The notes: generated by a model from the sequence alone, not told the origin. Shown: positions 7,950 through 15,659, counted from the first letter of the stretch. The stretch: 49,132 bases of DNA from Chloroflexota bacterium (GCA_018263575.1 JAANWX010000057.1:1-49132), one strand, 5' to 3'. A program made the numbers and translations.

Positions 7950-8068
7950 GTGGCGCTTAGAGGGTGACCTACATCCCACCCATTGTCACCCTGTAGAAGC
8001 GAGATTTAGAAATCTCGGCTACTTCTCTGCCTTTTTAAAAAAAAGATACGATCAAAGGAATCACATCC

Positions 8069-9076
8069 ATGCTTAAAAAAATAACAGGAAAATTATTCAG
8101 AAAAATCGCCGCAAGTCGCGGGTACAAATTGGTCCCAGGAAAACTCCTTTTTGATTGGCAAAAAGAACTTGGCGTGCATAAATCGCCCCCTAAAATCGAC
8201 CTTCCTCCAGGTGCAGCAGAAGCCCTGCGTTATCAGAATCCAACCCTAGTCGAGTACTGCCAGCGATATGCCGCCTTCGACGAGCGGGTGACCACGCCCC
8301 TCAAGTGGACCCAAGACTTAGTCTCAGATCGTGACCTGCAAACCTTCCGGGGCCATAACGCCTACGTGTATCAAACAGGAAGCCTGACCCGGAATATTGT
8401 GGCGTACACATTAGCCGCGTACTATATCAAAGCCAACGACCCGTTCGGGCTATGGGACACGCTTCAGGAAAAGGGGGATTTTGGCGTCCTGGCCCACAAG
8501 GTAGATGGCAAATTAATTTCCAGGGACCTTTTAGACTCCATCCTAGAGATCAATTTTCTAGAATCACTACTCAAACTATCCTCCTGGGAGAATCTTTCCG
8601 TCCTAGACATTGGCGCCGGCTACGGTCGATTGGCGCACAGGATGGTGGCCGCTTATGACAATCTGGGTCAATACCTGTGCACAGACGCCTTTCCGGTTTC
8701 GACCTTTCTTTGTGATTATTATTTGCGCTATAAGGGTATCGGTGAAAAAGCAAAATCTATCCCCCTGGATGAAATTGAAAAACGACTTGAAAAAACCACG
8801 ATCAATTTAGCAGTCAATGTCCACAGCTTTTCAGAATGTCAATGGTCCGCCATCGACTGGTGGATGTCGCTCCTGCAAAAGAACCGTGTGAAATACCTTA
8901 TGATCGTGCCCAACACGGGGGAACAATTACTGACCTTCGACCGCAAGGATTTCCTCCCTTTAGTGGAAGAGAAAGGGTACCGGCGGATAGCCCTAGCGCC
9001 AAAGTATAACGATCCTGCCGTTCAAAAATACGGCGCAAACCCCGATCATTATCACCTCTTCCAACTCGCTTCCTAA
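8069..9076 (+). CDS. Class I SAM-dependent methyltransferase (substrate unknown)
   Basis: Motif I VLDIGAGYGRLA. GC content is lower than in the neighbouring genes. Confidence 0.65.
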   Translation: MLKKITGKLFRKIAASRGYKLVPGKLLFDWQKELGVHKSPPKIDLPPGAAEALRYQNPTLVEYCQRYAAFDERVTTPLKWTQDLVSDRDLQTFRGHNAYVYQTGSLTRNIVAYTLAAYYIKANDPFGLWDTLQEKGDFGVLAHKVDGKLISRDLLDSILEINFLESLLKLSSWENLSVLDIGAGYGRLAHRMVAAYDNLGQYLCTDAFPVSTFLCDYYLRYKGIGEKAKSIPLDEIEKRLEKTTINLAVNVHSFSECQWSAIDWWMSLLQKNRVKYLMIVPNTGEQLLTFDRKDFLPLVEEKGYRRIALAPKYNDPAVQKYGANPDHYHLFQLAS

Positions 9077-9088
9077 GAAATTACACAA

Positions 9089-10150
9089 CTACTGATTCCG
9101 CTGCAAATACCGGGCAATCTGGCGGTCGATTTTCCCCATCGGGTACCCGTCCAGTTCTCCCACTCCCGCCCACTTCCAATCCGTGTGCTCCCTTAGCTGG
9201 ATCTCCTCCGTCACAAGCTGGCATTGAAAGGCGTGCAGCGTGATCCGAAAATGTGTATAAGCGTGATCATACACCCCCAGCGTCTCCCCAACCGCAATCT
9301 CCACCCCCAACTCCTCTTGAATTTCGCGTCTCAGGCAAGCGGATAGACTTTCACCCGCCTCCTGTGTTCCACCGGGGAATTCCCACATCCCGCCCAACAA
9401 CCCATCTGGGGGACGGCGGGCAATGAGCACTCGCCCAGCTTGGGGAATAACGGCCGCGGTCACCGTGTGGTGGGGGATGGGGGACTTCGCCTTCCGCACC
9501 GGCCGTTCTTCTTGTATCCCCAACACTCGTGCCTGGCAACCGCCCTTAACGGGACAGCGGGAACAGTTGGGGGTGCGGGACGTGCACACCAAGGCCCCCA
9601 AATCCATCAGAGCCTGGTTATAGCGGCTGGCGTGTGCGGGAAGGTGTTCCCCCGCCAAGGCCCACAGGCGCTTCTCTCCCGCGCTGGTGTGGATGGGAAT
9701 GGTGACGTTGAAGAAACGGGACAACACCCGGCGGATGTTCCCGTCCAGGGCCGGCTCGTCCGCACCAAAAGCTATCGAGGCCAGGGCCGCGGCCGTGTAG
9801 CGGCCAATCCCCGGCAAGGTGCGCAAAGTTTGGGCATCCCCCGGGAGAGTTCCCCCGTAGTCCTCCATCACCATCCCCGCCGCCCGATGCAAGGCTCGCG
9901 CGCGGCGGTAATAGCCCAATCCCTCCCACAAGGACAAGACCTCCTCCTGGGACGCCTCCGCCAGGGACTGAAGGGTCGGGAAACGGGCCATCCAGCGCTC
10001 AAAATAGGGTATCACCGCCGTCACCCGCGTCTGCTGAAGCATGACTTCCGAGACTAAGACCGCATACGGGTCGGACATCCCCCGCCAGGGTAGATCACGG
10101 GTATTTTCAGCATACCAGGTTAATAATTTTTCAGGAAAGTTTTCGCTCAT
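9089..10150 (-). CDS. mutY: A/G-specific adenine DNA glycosylase
   Basis: HhH-GPD region (LPGIGRYTAAA), 4Fe-4S loop CTSRTPNCSRCPVKGGC, and a C-terminal NUDIX-like domain. Confidence 0.9.
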   Translation of the reverse strand: MSENFPEKLLTWYAENTRDLPWRGMSDPYAVLVSEVMLQQTRVTAVIPYFERWMARFPTLQSLAEASQEEVLSLWEGLGYYRRARALHRAAGMVMEDYGGTLPGDAQTLRTLPGIGRYTAAALASIAFGADEPALDGNIRRVLSRFFNVTIPIHTSAGEKRLWALAGEHLPAHASRYNQALMDLGALVCTSRTPNCSRCPVKGGCQARVLGIQEERPVRKAKSPIPHHTVTAAVIPQAGRVLIARRPPDGLLGGMWEFPGGTQEAGESLSACLRREIQEELGVEIAVGETLGVYDHAYTHFRITLHAFQCQLVTEEIQLREHTDWKWAGVGELDGYPMGKIDRQIARYLQRNQ

Positions 10151-10153
10151 ACT

Positions 10154-11581
10154 TTAATAAACCGGCATGCTAGGATCAACTTCAACAGCCCAGTTGTTGA
10201 TTCCCCATTTTAGATTCTTTATCCTGCGAAATCCCGCGCTGGCCAAGATTTCCAAGGCACGCGTGGAGCGGGTGCCAGATTTGCAAAAGAGAACAATTTC
10301 TTCTGCGCTGTCCAGCTTATGCATTCGAGAAGCCAATTGCCCCATCGGGATCAGGTCAGCGCCCTCTAGGCTGGAGATTTCTAACTCATGCGGTTCGCGG
10401 ACATCAATCAGGTGAATATCGTCCTCTTTCTCTAATCGTTCTTTCAACTCAAGGGCGGTGATGTCCCACTCTTCCCCGGCCGAGCCTGCGCCATGGTCGT
10501 GAGCGGGCATGCCGCAGAACTCTTCGTAGTCGATTAATTCCGTCACTTCGGGGTCAGAACCGCACACCTTGCAATCCGGATTCTTGCGCAGGTTGACGAA
10601 ATCAAAGGACATGTCCAGGGCGTTATAGAGCAATAATTTACCGGCCAGAGAATCTCCAATACCCAAGATCAATTTTATGGCTTCGGTAGCCTGAATGGTG
10701 CCTATGGTGCCTGGCAAAACCCCCAGCACCCCACCCTCAGCGCAGGAAGGCACCAATCCCGGTGGGGGCGGTTCGGGGAAGAGACAACGATAACATGGCC
10801 CCTCTTGGGCATCGAAAACGCTGGCCTGTCCCTCGAAGCGGAAAATCGAGCCATAGACGTTGGGCTTCCCGGTCATGACACAGAGGTCGTTGACCAAATA
10901 CCGGGTGGGGAAATTATCTGTCCCATCGATGATGAGATCATAGGGCTTGGCTATACGAAAGGCGTTTTCCGAAGTGAACAATTCGTTATAGACATCAACC
11001 TCAATGGAGGGGTTGATGTCAAGCATGCGTTCGCGAGCGGACTCCACCTTAAGTTCATCCAACTGGGATTCGCCATGAATGACCTGGCGCTGCAAATTGG
11101 AAAAGTCCACCACATCATAATCAACCAGGCCAATGCGGCCAATCCCAGCCGCGGCCAGGTAGAGGGCCACTGGCGACCCCAATCCCCCTGTGCCGATGAC
11201 CAAGACGGAGGCGGCCTTAAGTTTTTTCTGCCCCGCCAAGCCAACCTCGGGGATCAGCAAATGGCGGGAGTAACGGTGAATCTCCTCGTGAGACAGTTCA
11301 GGCAAGTCAGTGCCACCGGCAATGCTGGGAATAATTTTAAGTATATCCTCCTCATTTATCGAGGTATCAACACCCTGTAGATGACGAATATTCTCCGAAC
11401 CAAGAAAAAGATTGACGAATGGCCGAAGTTCTCCAGCCTCGGAAAAGAGATGTTTCTTAAGCGCCGGATGCTGCGTCACGAGATCATCCAATGCTTCGGC
11501 GACATTCTGCCCCTTAACGTTGACTTCGGTTTGGTCGTCCGCGTAGGGGCGAAGGGGTGTGGGAATTTTTAAAGTTGTCAC
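10154..11581 (-). CDS. moeZ: Fusion protein: CysO/MoaD-like beta-grasp sulfur carrier (ends ...IAGG) plus MoeB/ThiF adenylyltransferase plus rhodanese (MoeZ-type)
   Basis: GTG start at 11581 with AGGAG 8 nt upstream. The 52 codons upstream in the tracked ORF run through a repeat element. Residues 1-90 resemble mycobacterial CysO (IPTPLRP...FVNLF...IAGG), followed by RYSRHLLIPEVG, GTGGLG, CYRC/CKVC and the rhodanese loop CKSGTRS. Confidence 0.85.
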   Translation of the reverse strand: MTTLKIPTPLRPYADDQTEVNVKGQNVAEALDDLVTQHPALKKHLFSEAGELRPFVNLFLGSENIRHLQGVDTSINEEDILKIIPSIAGGTDLPELSHEEIHRYSRHLLIPEVGLAGQKKLKAASVLVIGTGGLGSPVALYLAAAGIGRIGLVDYDVVDFSNLQRQVIHGESQLDELKVESARERMLDINPSIEVDVYNELFTSENAFRIAKPYDLIIDGTDNFPTRYLVNDLCVMTGKPNVYGSIFRFEGQASVFDAQEGPCYRCLFPEPPPPGLVPSCAEGGVLGVLPGTIGTIQATEAIKLILGIGDSLAGKLLLYNALDMSFDFVNLRKNPDCKVCGSDPEVTELIDYEEFCGMPAHDHGAGSAGEEWDITALELKERLEKEDDIHLIDVREPHELEISSLEGADLIPMGQLASRMHKLDSAEEIVLFCKSGTRSTRALEILASAGFRRIKNLKWGINNWAVEVDPSMPVY

Positions 11582-11633
11582 GATTATTACTCCTGGATAT
11601 GGATAATGAATACGGTTTGGTTTATTTCTTCTC

Positions 11634-11684
11634 CTCACCGCGAGGCCCTCACCCCCTCCCCTCGGCAGAGGGAAGAGGGTGACG
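11634..11684. repeat. GEGxGVR-type GC-rich hairpin repeat (inverted relative of 1566-1605)
   Basis: ctcaccgcgaggccctcaccccctcccctcggcagagggaagagggtgacg. Confidence 0.65.
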
Positions 11685-11705
11685 AAGGGTTGGGATATTA
11701 TAAAA

Positions 11706-11996
11706 TCAGCACCCTTCTCTCTCAACAACGGTCTCACAGTGAGAGGCGGGGTGGATTTCTACCGGGCCCGCCTGCTGGAAAGGTTGCATGAAATTTTCAA
11801 TGTTTTCAACTTCATCCGATTCGAGGATCAGATTGAACGTGTGTTTGCCATCAAGAACGGCATCGGCGTGGAGTTTGACGCCGAATTTACGGGCGTTCAT
11901 GGGGCTGATGTGTTGCAGCAGCATATTCCCCATTTCCGGGTCGCGAGCCGGGCAAGTTTCAGAATCATGTTTGTGGGTAACGAAATAGAGAGACAT
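11706..11996 (-). CDS. Small uncharacterised cysteine-containing protein in the cysM-mec-moeZ operon
   Basis: 96 aa with GGAGG 5 nt upstream of the ATG. Contains HDSETCPARD and C-terminal HCETVVEREGC. I do not recognise the family. Confidence 0.65.
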   Translation of the reverse strand: MSLYFVTHKHDSETCPARDPEMGNMLLQHISPMNARKFGVKLHADAVLDGKHTFNLILESDEVENIENFMQPFQQAGPVEIHPASHCETVVEREGC

Positions 11997-12021
11997 TTTT
12001 TCCTCCAGTTGTCAGTTTGGG

Positions 12022-12450
12022 TTAAGATTTTACTTGTATTGATTCTTCTTCGAAGGTCGAGCGATCGTCGGTCAGACGCCATGAGTGAGATTCGACGGCC
12101 TCACCTGCGTTCACGCTGGTGATGAGGTAGGAAAACCAGGGCAAGGCCCACTCCCGGTCATAGGCCGAGGGCCGGTTAGGATGGTCGGGGTGAGAATGGA
12201 AAACGCCAATCACGTCTAAGCCGCGCTCAGCAGCAATTTCTTCAGCACGCAGCATATCTTCGGGGGCCAGCATATACCGGTTATGGCGGGCGGAATCCTC
12301 GCGAATATTATCCAACATTAAAATATCGCTCACCGTCCGCGCGTCTTCTCGGTTCTGTCCTAATAATAAACCAGCCCCCTCATCTGGGTAGGTTTCCTCG
12401 CCATGAGCATGGATACGGTGAAGTAGTTTTTTAGAAATGATTATTTTCAT
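12022..12450 (-). CDS. mec: MPN/JAMM metalloprotease (Mec+-like)
   Basis: JAMM signature HSHPDHPNRPSAYD (HxHx7Sx2D) plus an upstream conserved Glu (YPDEGAG). Confidence 0.85.
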   Translation of the reverse strand: MKIIISKKLLHRIHAHGEETYPDEGAGLLLGQNREDARTVSDILMLDNIREDSARHNRYMLAPEDMLRAEEIAAERGLDVIGVFHSHPDHPNRPSAYDREWALPWFSYLITSVNAGEAVESHSWRLTDDRSTFEEESIQVKS

Positions 12451-12480
12451 AAGCTTGTCTTTTCCTCGCAGCGCGGATTA

Positions 12481-13464
12481 TTACGCCCAAAGCGCTTCAT
12501 CGCTGAGATATTTATAACCAGCATCAGGGAAAACGGTGACCACCACCCCCTCCTCCAATTGCGCGGCAACCTGGAGGGCAGCAACAGCCGCCGCTCCGGA
12601 GGAAATGCCTACAAAATAGCCCTCTTCGCGCGCCAGACGCCGCACCATCTCATAAGCTGCTTCGGTAGCAACTCCCAGAATTTGGTCAGGGGCCTCAGGG
12701 TCATAGATTTTGGGCTGAATGGCGGTGGTCATGTGTTTGAGACCTTCCAAACCATGGAAAGCCGCCTCGGGTTGGACAGCGATGGCCTTAACCGAAGGGT
12801 CGTGTTCCCGCAAGGCACGCGACACGCCCATAAAGGTTCCCGAAGTACCCAAACCGGCCACAAAATGTGTGATTTCGCCCGCAGTTTGGGTGATGATCTC
12901 AGGGCCAGTGGCGTGGTAATGGGCTTGCCAGTTGGCTGGGTTATCGTATTGATTCGCGTAATAATACCGCTCGGGGTGCTGTTTGGCCAACTTCCGAACA
13001 GCGTGGATGGCGCCGTCAGAACCTTCCATGGGATCGGTGAAGATCAGTTCCGCGCCCAAGGCGCGCAAGATGGCCACTCGCTCCGGGCTGACGTTCTCGG
13101 GTATGACCAGCGTCACGGGGACATCGAGCGAGGCCCCAAAAGTGGCATATGCGATTCCCATATTTCCAGACGTAGAATCCAGCAAGCGGGTGCCAGGGAG
13201 GATTTTTCCCTCGAACAACGCGGTGCGGATAATGTTGAAAGCCGGGCGATCTTTAACCGATCCTCCCGGGTTGAGCCATTCAGCTTTTGCGTAAACATGT
13301 ACAGCGGGAGAGATGTGCCCATTTATGCTGCGCAAGGACAGCAAGGGTGTATTCCCAACCGATTTTAACAAGTCCATTCCTTCCATATCCATGGGGGATG
13401 GGCCTGGAACAGGGGTTGTAGTTGGACGTGATGGGGTTGCTATGGTTTTAGTCGGGGCAATCAT
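12481..13464 (-). CDS. cysM: Cysteine synthase, CysM-like (PLP-dependent)
   Basis: SVKDRPA PLP-lysine motif, GLGTSGTFMG loop and GNTPLL. I place the start at ATG 13464 (AAGGAGA 5-6 nt upstream) rather than at 13539. Confidence 0.85.
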   Translation of the reverse strand: MIAPTKTIATPSRPTTTPVPGPSPMDMEGMDLLKSVGNTPLLSLRSINGHISPAVHVYAKAEWLNPGGSVKDRPAFNIIRTALFEGKILPGTRLLDSTSGNMGIAYATFGASLDVPVTLVIPENVSPERVAILRALGAELIFTDPMEGSDGAIHAVRKLAKQHPERYYYANQYDNPANWQAHYHATGPEIITQTAGEITHFVAGLGTSGTFMGVSRALREHDPSVKAIAVQPEAAFHGLEGLKHMTTAIQPKIYDPEAPDQILGVATEAAYEMVRRLAREEGYFVGISSGAAAVAALQVAAQLEEGVVVTVFPDAGYKYLSDEALWA

Positions 13465-13779
13465 TAAGTCTCCTTTAACCAAAAAAGCCAATAGACATAA
13501 AATAAGCAGCGGGTAAGCCGCCGTAAACACGTGCTTCAATGCTCGCGGAGTCGCGACTACCCTTCGCCTGTCTATTGGTCGGAGATTGTACTAGAAATTT
13601 GACGAGACGGGTAGCGTTACGATCCCCGCCCCATACAGATGCAAAGTAACAAAGTTATTTCCTCCAAAAGTTTTTTATGATAATATTGATGTAAATTATA
13701 TTTATATTATGGGATTTGTCAAGGCTTAGGATTATATCAACTTGACAAGTTTCAAGTTAATAATTAAACTTGTCTATAT

Positions 13780-15659
13780 GACTCCACTGAAAAAAGGTGA
13801 CTTTTAACACTTGCAAAATGCATAAATTAACATAGAATAGAATCGTAATTAACATACGTATCTAAAGGAAAAATCTATGTTTATGCCAAATGAAAGTCAT
13901 CGTCAAACAGGTATTTTCGACACCATCAATGAGTTACCTGACAAGCAATTAGAACGCTTAGAAGAATCCTGGGCAGACACATTTTACAAAGAAGTATTCA
14001 TGAGGATTAATGAAGACATCTTTGCAGAGCTGTACTCCGAAAAACCATCTCGACCCAACGTGCCGATTAACATACTGGTAGGCCTGGAAATCCTAAAATA
14101 CGGTTGCGGATGGACAGACCATGAGATGCATGACTTTTTTACTTATAACGTACAAGTGCGTTATGCCTTAGGTTGCAGAGACTTGGCAAGCGAACACTTT
14201 GAATTACGAACCATGTACAATTTTCGGCGAAGGCTAGTCAAACATGAACAAGAAACAGGGGAAAACTTATTTGAGAATGTGTTTGAGCAGGTTACAGACG
14301 AGCAACTGGAGGTTCTCCCGGTAAAAACAAATCAGTTGCGGAAAGATAGCACGCTCATCATGAGTAATATTCGAGAAATGACTCGCATCCGGTTATTAGT
14401 AGAAGTATTGCAAAGAGTCCATAGGATGTTAAGTGAAGAAGACCAAGAAAAATATCAAGACGAGTTTAAGCCGTACCTGAAAGGAAGTTCAGGGCAATAT
14501 ATCTACAACCTTGAAGAGGGAGAGTATAAAAGCAGCTTAGAAGCGATTGGTCAAGTGATGCAACAGTTAGTGATAGAGCTAGCGGAAGAGTATGGGGAGG
14601 AAGCATGTTACACAATATTGCAACGAGTATTTGAAGAGCATTATACTCTGGAAGACAATGCCTTACGCCCAAAACAGGGTCAAGAACTGAAAGCAGACAG
14701 CCTCCAATCGCCAGATGATCACGGTGTGCACCCAACTGGTGAGGGAGGCTACATATCGGAAAAAACGTGGAGAAGATTACCAAGGGTACACATTTAGCGC
14801 AACGGAGACCTGCAATCCGGAAAATGATCTGCAATTGATTGTCTCTATCCAAACAGAGCCTAACAACACTGACGACGCTGAAATGTTGGAAGAAGAGATA
14901 CCCGACTTGAAAAAGCTGACTGATGTAGAGGAAATATATATCGATGGTGGGTTTGGAAGCTCTGATGTAGATAAAGCGGCATCCAAAAATGAAATAGAGC
15001 TTTTTCAAACCGCTATTCGAGGGCGGAAGCCATCTTCAGATAAATTGTATTTATCTGATTTCACATGGGAAGTGGACGAGGAAAGTCTTCCATCCACGAT
15101 AACGTGTCCCAATGGGCAAGAAGTGGCAGTTGAAAATGGTAGAAAGGAACATAGATACTTGGCCTATTTTGATAGTGACCAGTGTGCTACTTGTTCTCGG
15201 ATAGATATATGTCCAACTGCTGAGCTAAAAACAAAACCGCTGAGAGTGTTGAGGTTTTCACAAGAGGAGCTTTGTGTCGCCAAAAGGAGGAAAAATAGTG
15301 AAGCACTCCGAAATTCGGGAAAGAACTTACGTAGTGCGGTTGAAGCCACTATGCGTTCAGTACAACATCCTTTTGGAGAGAAATTACCGGTGAGGGGTGA
15401 TCACCGCATTAGTACAGCGATGGCCGGATCAACGCTTATGACGAATTCGCGTCGAATTCATCGTTACGAAGTAGAAAAGAGGAAGAAAAAAGCTCAAGAG
15501 CAAGAAAAAAAACAAAATGAAGAGACAAAAAATGACTTGGGTATTTCTTTGCCTTCTTTTTTAACTCATTTTATCCGCAGATTGCGAAGCTTAAAAGTTG
15601 ACTTTGGGTATACTTTTGCTTTTTCTAGTGTTTAAACCCAGTGTTTTTTCAGAAGAGTC
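13780..15659 (+). mobile_element. IS1182/IS5-like insertion sequence (~1.9 kb) with imperfect ~34-bp terminal inverted repeats
   Basis: The left end gactccactgaaaaaaggtgacttttaacact matches the reverse complement of the right end gactcttctgaaaaaacactgggtttaaacact. The element is AT-rich relative to its flanks and carries the transposase ORFs. Confidence 0.75.
13877..15635 (+). pseudogene. IS1182-like DDE transposase split into two overlapping ORFs by a +1/-2 frame change
   Basis: ORF1 has a DUF772-like N-terminus (VPINILVGLEILKYGCGWTDHEM). ORF2 continues with ATYRKKRGEDYQGY and CPNGQEV...CATCSRIDICP. The frame switch falls between about 14718 and 14740, where I see no slippery motif. Confidence 0.7.

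Follow-up and report, generated by a model that had tools for sequence, protein, structure and literature searches.

How can a sulfur carrier be activated when the glycine that its activating enzyme has to modify is joined by a peptide bond to that very enzyme? This question is raised by a gene on the minus strand of a 49,132-nt stretch of DNA from a Chloroflexota bacterium (GCA_018263575.1 JAANWX010000057.1:1-49132; this whole stretch is called the window, and positions are counted from its first letter). The gene encodes a CysO-type carrier that runs in frame through its Gly-Gly (GG) into its own MoeZ-type E1/rhodanese, and it lies in an operon with genes for a JAMM metalloprotease and a CysM-type enzyme. 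E1 enzymes of the MoeZ family adenylate a free C-terminal glycine carboxylate. In Mycobacterium tuberculosis, MoeZ makes the CysO thiocarboxylate, CysM uses this thiocarboxylate and Mec+ releases cysteine. With its GG in peptide linkage to the E1, the window protein needs an additional maturation step. Comparison with related loci led us to propose that the product is probably a pro-carrier, which is released after GG by the Mec-type JAMM of the operon and then enters the standard CysO/MoeZ/CysM pathway.

The fusion is encoded by a minus-strand open reading frame (ORF) of 475 aa (11581..10154, with its TAA at 10156-10154), whose GTG start at 11581 is preceded at 8 nt by an AGGAG. This start, read from the sequence by the first-pass annotation, is the correct one because homologues share its first residue (MPxLRIPTPLR). 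A longer ORF of 527 aa from a GTG at 11737 was ruled out, since all homologues start at MPxLRIPTPLR. An internal TTG start (Leu93) that would give an extra free E1 is possible in principle, and nothing supports it. The carrier codons 1-90 read (M)TTLKIPTPLRPY...ILKIIPSIAGG, with codons 89-90 (GGT GGC) at 11317-11312. No stop follows; the next codons are ACT GAC TTG CCT (T-D-L-P) and the frame goes on as TDLPELSHEEIHRYSRHLLIPEVG, to give a protein with the domain order CysO-type ThiS (residues 1-90), two-residue linker, ThiF/MoeZ E1 and rhodanese. The region 11150-11450 was matched without substitution or indel by Logan contigs from 4 runs belonging to 3 marine/seawater studies, which show neither the missed stop nor the frameshift for which the first-pass annotation had wanted this junction inspected. 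A minor variant contig was present in one of these runs as well; over 192 nt it differs by 15 substitutions, and its alignment across the junction is ungapped. Several contigs encode exactly this 475-aa protein and a second variant of 475 aa that is nearly identical to it, and the population carrying the fusion reaches a depth of more than 100 in several marine samples. The fusion is real.

The N-terminal domain (codons 1-90, 11312..11581, minus strand) was identified as a CysO-type beta-grasp sulfur carrier by Pfam, NCBIfam, structure comparison and AlphaFold2. The Pfam ThiS profile matched residues 5-90 with 34.6 bits (cut-off 22.5), the nearest NCBIfam models were SAMP1/MoaD (59.6 bits for SAMP1), and residues 1-90 gave full-length matches to CysO structures (4n6e_B, E=1.6e-13; M. 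tuberculosis CysO 3dwg_C, E=7.5e-12), as expected from the earlier description of a CysO-like domain ending in GG. Identity over these residues is 70% and 64% to the free CysO proteins of two related loci (L002 and L003, respectively). The terminal motif IPSIAGG corresponds to residues 84-90, and its GG is unchanged across free and fused relatives. Judged from its sequence and its operon position, the fused domain is the orthologue of the free CysO of sister genomes. A profile search of all six frames found no second free CysO-like ORF in the 49-kb window. Whereas the GG of a sulfur carrier is the C-terminus of the translated product, here the frame continues into the E1, and the gene product is therefore a carrier precursor like QbsE, CxnE and MoaX. 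In the alignment, a linker of two residues (Thr-Asp, 11306..11311, minus strand) separates the GG from the point at which unfused MoeZ proteins start (M-LPxLSH). The AlphaFold2 model, built on a 26-sequence alignment, has a mean predicted local distance difference test score (pLDDT) of 78.7. Residues 1-85 adopt the beta-grasp-like secondary structure on which the earlier assignment depended, with a pLDDT of 70-93, and the E1 and rhodanese domains are confidently modelled. The junction segment around the GG (residues 85-109) falls below 50 between two confident domains and is presumably a flexible, exposed connector.

Downstream of the linker, the adenylation and rhodanese domains announced by the first-pass annotation are both complete. 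The ThiF/MoeB adenylation (E1) domain comprises residues 104-339 (10565..11272, minus strand; Pfam ThiF, 276 bits), and the rhodanese domain comprises residues 376-465 (10187..10456, minus strand; Pfam Rhodanese, 54.8 bits), with CKSGTRS as the active site that carries the persulfide. The E1 contains the nucleotide loop GTGGLG, a CYRC...CKVC zinc site and the crossover-loop Cys280 in PSCAEGG. In 26 aligned relatives the four zinc ligands (C263/C266/C337/C340), the loop cysteine C280, the rhodanese C433 and R438 and the GTGGLG loop are all invariant. At the family level, the protein passes the NCBIfam MoeB model NF006444 (461.6 bits, cut-off 449) and scores 501 bits with the MoeZ model NF005902 (cut-off 647) and 528 with PRK07411 (cut-off 633). 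A Foldseek search with the whole AlphaFold2 model retrieved Uba4 (6yub, E=1.7e-32), as well as MoeB(-MoaD) 1jw9 and ThiF(-ThiS) 1zud; it returned E1 structures only, and nothing informative on the carrier domain.

The fusion gene is the last of four genes that point in the same direction, in the order cysM–JAB–DUF3303–fusion. The JAB gene (12022..12450, minus strand) encodes a Mec-type JAMM/MPN+ metalloprotease of 142 aa (Pfam Prok-JAB, 83 bits; 2kcq_A, E=1.4e-28) with a complete JAMM motif (E...HxHx7Sx2D), in which the glutamate lies in YPDEGAG and is followed by HSHPDHPNRPSAYD. It is the predicted maturase that would cut after the GG and also the predicted hydrolase of the CysO-Cys adduct. 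The first gene (12481..13464, minus strand) encodes a fold-type II enzyme of the CysM/CysK family (327 aa), dependent on PLP (pyridoxal 5′-phosphate), with its PLP lysine in SVKDR (Pfam PALP, 241 bits), and the equivalent gene opens the conserved operon in 80 Anaerolineales loci. Its score against the cysM model TIGR01138 (338 bits) is under the cut-off of 394. It matches M. tuberculosis CysM (3dwg_A, E=2e-59) no better than other cysteine synthases (3.5e-61), so that no specific affinity to the M. tuberculosis enzyme was seen. We consider it the predicted acceptor enzyme for the CysO thiocarboxylate. Together with ThiS, ThiF and rhodanese, the Prok-JAB domain was thus called by Pfam, and the three upstream neighbours reported earlier (an MPN/JAMM protein, a CysM-type PLP enzyme and a 96-aa protein that proved to contain DUF3303) are all accounted for.

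These components suggest the following sequence of events. The gene product would be a pro-protein in which the Gly-Gly of CysO is linked to the N-terminal end of its cognate MoeZ-type E1/rhodanese. The operon JAMM would hydrolyse the predicted scissile bond Gly90|Thr91 to produce two proteins, a CysO of 90 residues with GG at its end and a MoeZ of ~385 residues that starts where unfused MoeZ starts, the predicted new N-terminal peptide of the E1 part being TDLPELSHEEIHR. MoeZ would then adenylate the C-terminal glycine of CysO, and the rhodanese persulfide would turn the adenylate into a thiocarboxylate. Finally, the CysM-type PLP enzyme would condense this thiocarboxylate with an activated serine, and the same JAMM would free cysteine from the CysO-Cys adduct.

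To place the fusion among its relatives, we searched GTDB, with each species represented by a single genome, for matches to a CysO-domain profile. The search yielded 80 loci, 79 of them labelled Anaerolineales/Chloroflexota and one (L084) Saprospiraceae, and in all 80 the CysO gene lies within an operon holding a JAB. Two gene orders are conserved: cysM-JAB-cysO-moeZ, with nothing, DUF3303 or DUF4395-thioredoxin between JAB and cysO, and cysM-JAB-cysO-DUF4395-thioredoxin-moeZ. DUF4395 and thioredoxin recur as members of the cysteine operon. When each CysO frame was read to its stop, it stopped exactly at the GG in 40 of the 80 loci and carried a tail of 1-33 residues after the GG in 29. In 10 loci it continued without a break into the next gene, that of the membrane protein DUF4395 (247-258 residues; L024, L029, L030, L032, L038, L074, L075, L079, L081 and L084), and in a single one (L034) into the E1. 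The CysO::DUF4395 arrangement was also found in P0232 and P0240, and in this form, a soluble carrier on a membrane protein, the carrier would also need cleavage. Read in this way, in half of the 80 species the carrier leaves the ribosome in a form that cannot be adenylated. Whether free, tailed or fused, CysO is encoded at one and the same operon slot in sister genomes, and the loci indicate that CysO often fuses to whichever gene is downstream, E1 or DUF4395, and does so repeatedly. Since the JAMM is always present, extensions after the GG would be nearly neutral and would therefore accumulate. By the same token, the Anaerolineales JAB occurs with or without a CysO extension and is therefore not specific to fusions there. 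Some loci (L047, L056, L061, L065, L067-L070, L076 and L077) have a second CysO-like gene 5′ of cysM and a second cysM-like gene 3′ of moeZ, the carrier/synthase pair being duplicated around the same JAB and E1.

The relatives also bear on how the fusion arose. A search of the protein collection was performed, and the E1 parts of its 120 best hits were used for a tree. Among these hits the E1 closest to that of the window belongs to P0012, which is unfused and 87.7% identical over the E1 part. At the P0012 locus CysO has the C-terminus IPSIAGGRQSR, and there is a 4-nt overlap between its stop and the start of moeZ. In another relative, CysO stops at the GG and moeZ follows after a 75-nt spacer, and the three DNA junctions align as a small deletion merging two overlapping frames would predict. 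In a neighbour-joining tree without support values, built from the E1 parts of these score-selected hits, the window protein pairs with the unfused P0012 within a clade of unfused enzymes. Its E1 is 81.4% identical to that of the best fused relative. Because the nearest E1 is thus an unfused one, the fusion in the window would be a recent, independent event. Two other proteins show the same pattern: the P0003 E1 is 90.8% identical to an unfused enzyme and 84.5% to a fused one, and the figures for P0043 are 91.6% and 78.7%, respectively. A separate group of 16 fused clusters diverges down to 70.6% E1 identity, from which it follows that a fusion can persist over long times. Even taken alone, the identity figures suggest that fusion occurred several times independently, in some cases recently, and that at least one fusion has lasted long. 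These comparisons are consistent with an origin in which cysO and moeZ, adjacent and often overlapping, would be merged by a small indel that joins their frames, fusions arising repeatedly and persisting.

Carrier–E1 fusions are not confined to the window. The 120 best hits include at least 22 further clusters, 434-490 residues long, that align over the whole query. All but two of the fused clusters contain IPSIAGG or a close variant, a linker of ~0-25 residues and then LPxLSHxEILRYSRHLL. The two exceptions are degenerate: P0022 looks frameshifted near the GG, and P0043 has an internal deletion in its ThiS domain. A second search, in which phmmer was run with residues 1-140 (the carrier and the first 50 E1 residues) against 1.84 billion representatives at 50% identity, found the GG–E1 junction spanned in 95 of the best 150 representatives, with identities down to about 37%, a proportion that is not a frequency because such a query favours fusions. 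In these 95 the distance from the GG to the N-terminal helix of the E1 (RYSRH) is 9-53 residues, with a median of 18; 8 of them are full-length proteins of 452-516 residues and the remainder are truncated by contig ends. The source names of fused members include Gemmatimonadales, Evtepia (Firmicutes), Teredinibacter (Gammaproteobacteria) and Anaerolineales, and JGI already names some fused proteins 'sulfur-carrier protein adenylyltransferase/sulfurtransferase'. The layout is a genuine fusion and less unusual than the first-pass annotation had thought, since it is widespread in public data and already annotated. Annotations of the same proteins differ in places: P0275 (HEY8257299.1, Gemmatimonadales) is given by NCBI as a 379-aa MoeB from an internal start, whereas its 90% cluster, that of P0129, includes fused forms of 477 aa. 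Such an internal start drops the carrier, and a pathway reconstruction based on it may be misled into listing the carrier as absent. Other architectures were observed after a CysO-like GG. P0222 combines ThiS with Glyoxalase, and tandem ThiS-ThiS proteins that resemble polyubiquitin-style precursors are represented by P0225 (by Pfam) and P0263 (judged only by a second IPSIAGG).

A domain-architecture search with gene neighbourhoods, as proposed by the first-pass annotation, located fusions in several phyla, usually with a JAB beside them. The Gemmatimonadales-like fused loci have the order Rrf2-PALP-JAB-fusion, in Firmicutes-like loci the JAB gene overlaps the start of the fusion, and a variant with the order ThiS-Rhodanese-ThiF has a JAB overlapping upstream and a PLP enzyme downstream. 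In Teredinibacter waterburyi a single protein of 634 aa (WP_188152452.1, P0177; L090:5001-6905, MRUH01000169.1) comprises JAB, ThiS, Rhodanese and ThiF in that order. Outside Anaerolineales the JAB is thus more tightly tied to fused carriers, in one case within a single chain, and by Rosetta-stone reasoning this is evidence for an action of the JAB on the carrier in its fused form. The T. waterburyi gene is flanked by a lanthipeptide-dehydratase-like gene, MacB/FtsX ABC transporters and a LuxI/LuxR pair, a neighbourhood in which the protein may serve a natural-product cluster as a self-contained sulfur-donor module.

Taken together, the conserved CysO domain and GG, the variable linker, the operon slot shared with free carriers and the JAB beside distant fusions uphold the earlier proposal that a carrier with a locked GG is excised by the adjacent JAMM, in that this is the reading best supported by comparison; the cleavage step of that proposal keeps the standing of a prediction. 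Several points weigh against it. The cut, its site and the enzyme that makes it are all drawn from comparison. The JAB also occurs in unfused operons, where Mec-type release of cysteine already explains it. With a linker of two residues, the JAMM would have to reach a GG packed against the N-terminal helix of the E1. The search for other carriers covered 49 kb of the genome, and a free carrier could be encoded elsewhere. Finally, the E1 tree is a neighbour-joining tree of score-selected hits without support values. A stronger version of the proposal is that the blocked CysO is a pro-carrier strategy under selection and not drift that is tolerated, so far undescribed and present in several phyla, in which the JAMM is an obligate maturase that gates activation and the carrier and E1 are made 1:1. 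On this version the exposed glycine would be left beside the adenylation site, because the RYSRH helix lies 14 residues from the GG. We regard it as rather unlikely, and if it were true it would place a ubiquitin-precursor-like maturation step inside primary cysteine metabolism.

Excision by the operon JAMM has to be compared with three other accounts of a real fusion. The cut after the GG could be made by another protease or by self-cleavage, the JAB serving only in Mec-type cysteine release. The JAB is indeed equally present where CysO ends exactly at the GG and is not diagnostic of processing; however, four unrelated fused architectures have a JAB next to the fusion or overlapping it, in P0177 the JAB is part of the same chain, and the enzymes reported to cut after a sulfur-carrier GG in PMC8832034 and PMC5925218 are only JAMM enzymes, so that this account appears improbable. 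To a similar degree, we doubt that the fusion is a recent accident, neutral or mildly deleterious, through which carrier or E1 (or both) lost activity while the operon decays. The event is young, the nearest E1 relative being unfused, degenerate fused forms exist (P0043, P0022) and the operon is closely preceded by a split transposase. Against decay, the catalytic motifs are intact throughout, both in the carrier, E1, rhodanese and JAMM and in all four operon proteins, the sequence depth exceeds 100 in marine samples, the variant contig has accumulated its substitutions with no indel across the junction, and other fused lineages have lasted to about 70% E1 identity. Slightly less probable again is that the N-terminal domain is never released and has a tethered regulatory or docking role, with a separate free carrier encoded elsewhere. 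In its favour, Iyer et al. 2006 described a solo ThiS alongside Ubl-ThiF fusions (Ubl, ubiquitin-like) and proposed another role for the fused domain; a further CysO-like gene precedes cysM in some Anaerolineales loci, and our view was of 49 kb of the genome. Yet by orthology the domain is a genuine CysO whose GG is invariant, and it belongs to no distinct Ubl family, neither the operon nor the window contains a solo carrier, and the nearest relative has a free CysO in this very slot. In addition, the GG is invariant in every intact fused form while the linker length varies freely, which fits a discarded spacer. A sequencing or assembly artefact, in the form of a missed stop or a frameshift at the GG, is excluded by the identical, indel-free junction in contigs of 4 runs and 3 studies, by the recurrence of the exact protein on several contigs and by dozens of independent fused homologues.

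Several further features were found around the fusion gene. The gene between JAB and the fusion (11706..11996, minus strand) encodes the 96-aa DUF3303 protein (Pfam DUF3303, 23.6 bits), and DUF3303 occupies the equivalent slot between JAB and cysO in 17 of the 80 Anaerolineales loci, one of which is the fused L034. The protein has a conserved cysteine near both ends, and the same slot is alternately held by DUF4395-thioredoxin; it may be a redox or sulfur-relay accessory. Upstream of cysM, a sigma-70-like promoter (TTGACA-16-TATAAT, 13695..13722, minus strand) matches the consensus at 12/12 positions and, on this consensus match, likely drives the operon. The 124-nt spacer 5′ of the fusion gene folds into a perfect 15-bp GC-rich hairpin (11649..11682, minus strand), and the 138-nt stretch that includes it has a folding energy of -45 kcal/mol (z=-2.5). 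A second promoter-like site (11725-11697, minus strand; 11/12 of the sigma-70 consensus) lies within the end of the DUF3303 gene and precedes the hairpin. The region 11646-11725 (minus strand) could thus be an internal promoter with a regulatory or stabilising stem. No riboswitch or known RNA was matched by Rfam (E<=1) in the operon leaders within 8000-15000. At 3 nt 3′ of the fusion stop, as noted in the first reading of the sequence, lies mutY (A/G-specific adenine glycosylase; 9089..10150, minus strand; TIGR01084, 319 bits, over its cut-off). This gene is not kept beside the operon elsewhere, L001-L003 having other downstream genes. Past mutY, on the opposite strand, an ORF of 335 aa (8069-9076, plus strand) has no Pfam match at E<=0.01. 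Directly 5′ of the promoter region of the cysteine operon, two overlapping 306-aa ORFs in different frames (13877-15635, plus strand) contain the N-terminal (DUF772) and DDE (DDE_Tnp_1_6) parts of one transposase and represent a split or frameshifted insertion sequence (IS) element.

The principle that underlies this proposal is already established. A role for JAB in releasing ThiS/MoaD wherever these are fused to other proteins is a prediction of Iyer et al. 2006 (PMC1779556), and the carrier-to-E1 fusion extends that principle. Full-text literature searches, including PMC1779556, PMC12596934 and PMC1949818, returned no published ThiS-ThiF-rhodanese (CysO-MoeZ) fusion; a prior mention is possible, for example in the E1-superfamily survey of Burroughs et al. 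2009. What would be new for specialists is that half of the species have blocked carriers, that fusions to the downstream gene recur and that one protein unites the four domains JAB-ThiS-Rhd-E1. This comparative pattern of blocked carriers and repeated downstream fusions is a more useful result than the window fusion alone. If the JAMM does make the cut, the carrier-to-E1 fusion joins a short list of bacterial sulfur-carrier precursors, and a Mec-type JAMM does two jobs, carrier maturation and product release, as eukaryotic deubiquitinases do.

The closest known system is the CysO/CysM/Mec+/MoeZ pathway of M. tuberculosis (type 4c/4d in PMC1779556, where operon type 4c, with E1 and rhodanese, was reported for Chloroflexus among others). 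The same four protein families are present in the window; in contrast to that pathway, the carrier is not free-standing, its GG is bonded to the E1, and a DUF3303 gene is added. As regards the fusion itself, the nearest parallels are the MoaD-MoaE proteins cited in PMC8832034 (D. radiodurans DR2607/DR0402, M. tuberculosis MoaX and H. volcanii SAMP1-MoaE/HvJAMM1), in which a carrier is GG-fused to its partner and a JAMM has to cleave there before the glycine carboxylate is exposed: according to the work cited in that source, DR0402 cuts a MoaD-MoaE fusion and HvJAMM1 acts on linear fusions. The partner in those cases is the sulfur acceptor MoaE of the molybdopterin pathway, whereas in the window it is the activating E1 and the pathway is that of cysteine. 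The tailed carriers resemble QbsE (GG-CF) and CxnE (GG-SEAARAEESR), for which trimming of the residues after GG by a JAMM of the cluster before MoeZ-type activation is described or proposed in PMC5925218: QbsD takes off two residues after the QbsE GG, and CxnF was proposed to remove a decapeptide from CxnE. The 29 tailed Anaerolineales CysO proteins, including that of the nearest relative of the window (GGRQSR), fit this pattern; however, the tails of QbsE and CxnE comprise 2-10 residues, and the 'tail' in the window is an enzyme of 385 residues. A beta-grasp domain on the N-terminus of a ThiF-family E1 is also found in the Campylobacter-type Ubl-ThiF proteins (Iyer et al. 2006, PMC1779556). 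There the Ubl is distinct from ThiS and lies in a thiamine operon with a solo ThiS and no JAB or rhodanese, and a non-carrier role was proposed on the basis of the distinct Ubl and the solo ThiS. Membership of the window protein in that group was rejected, as its carrier is a CysO orthologue, its operon contains no thi genes and the window holds no second CysO-like ORF. Among eukaryotic systems, the E1+rhodanese architecture is that of Uba4/MOCS3 (Foldseek 6yub, E=1.7e-32), and the nearest analogy to the whole arrangement is that of ubiquitin precursors (polyubiquitin, Ub-ribosomal protein), which are likewise C-terminally blocked fusions released after a GG, although ubiquitin is not fused to its E1, deubiquitinases are mostly cysteine proteases and Urm1 is free-standing.

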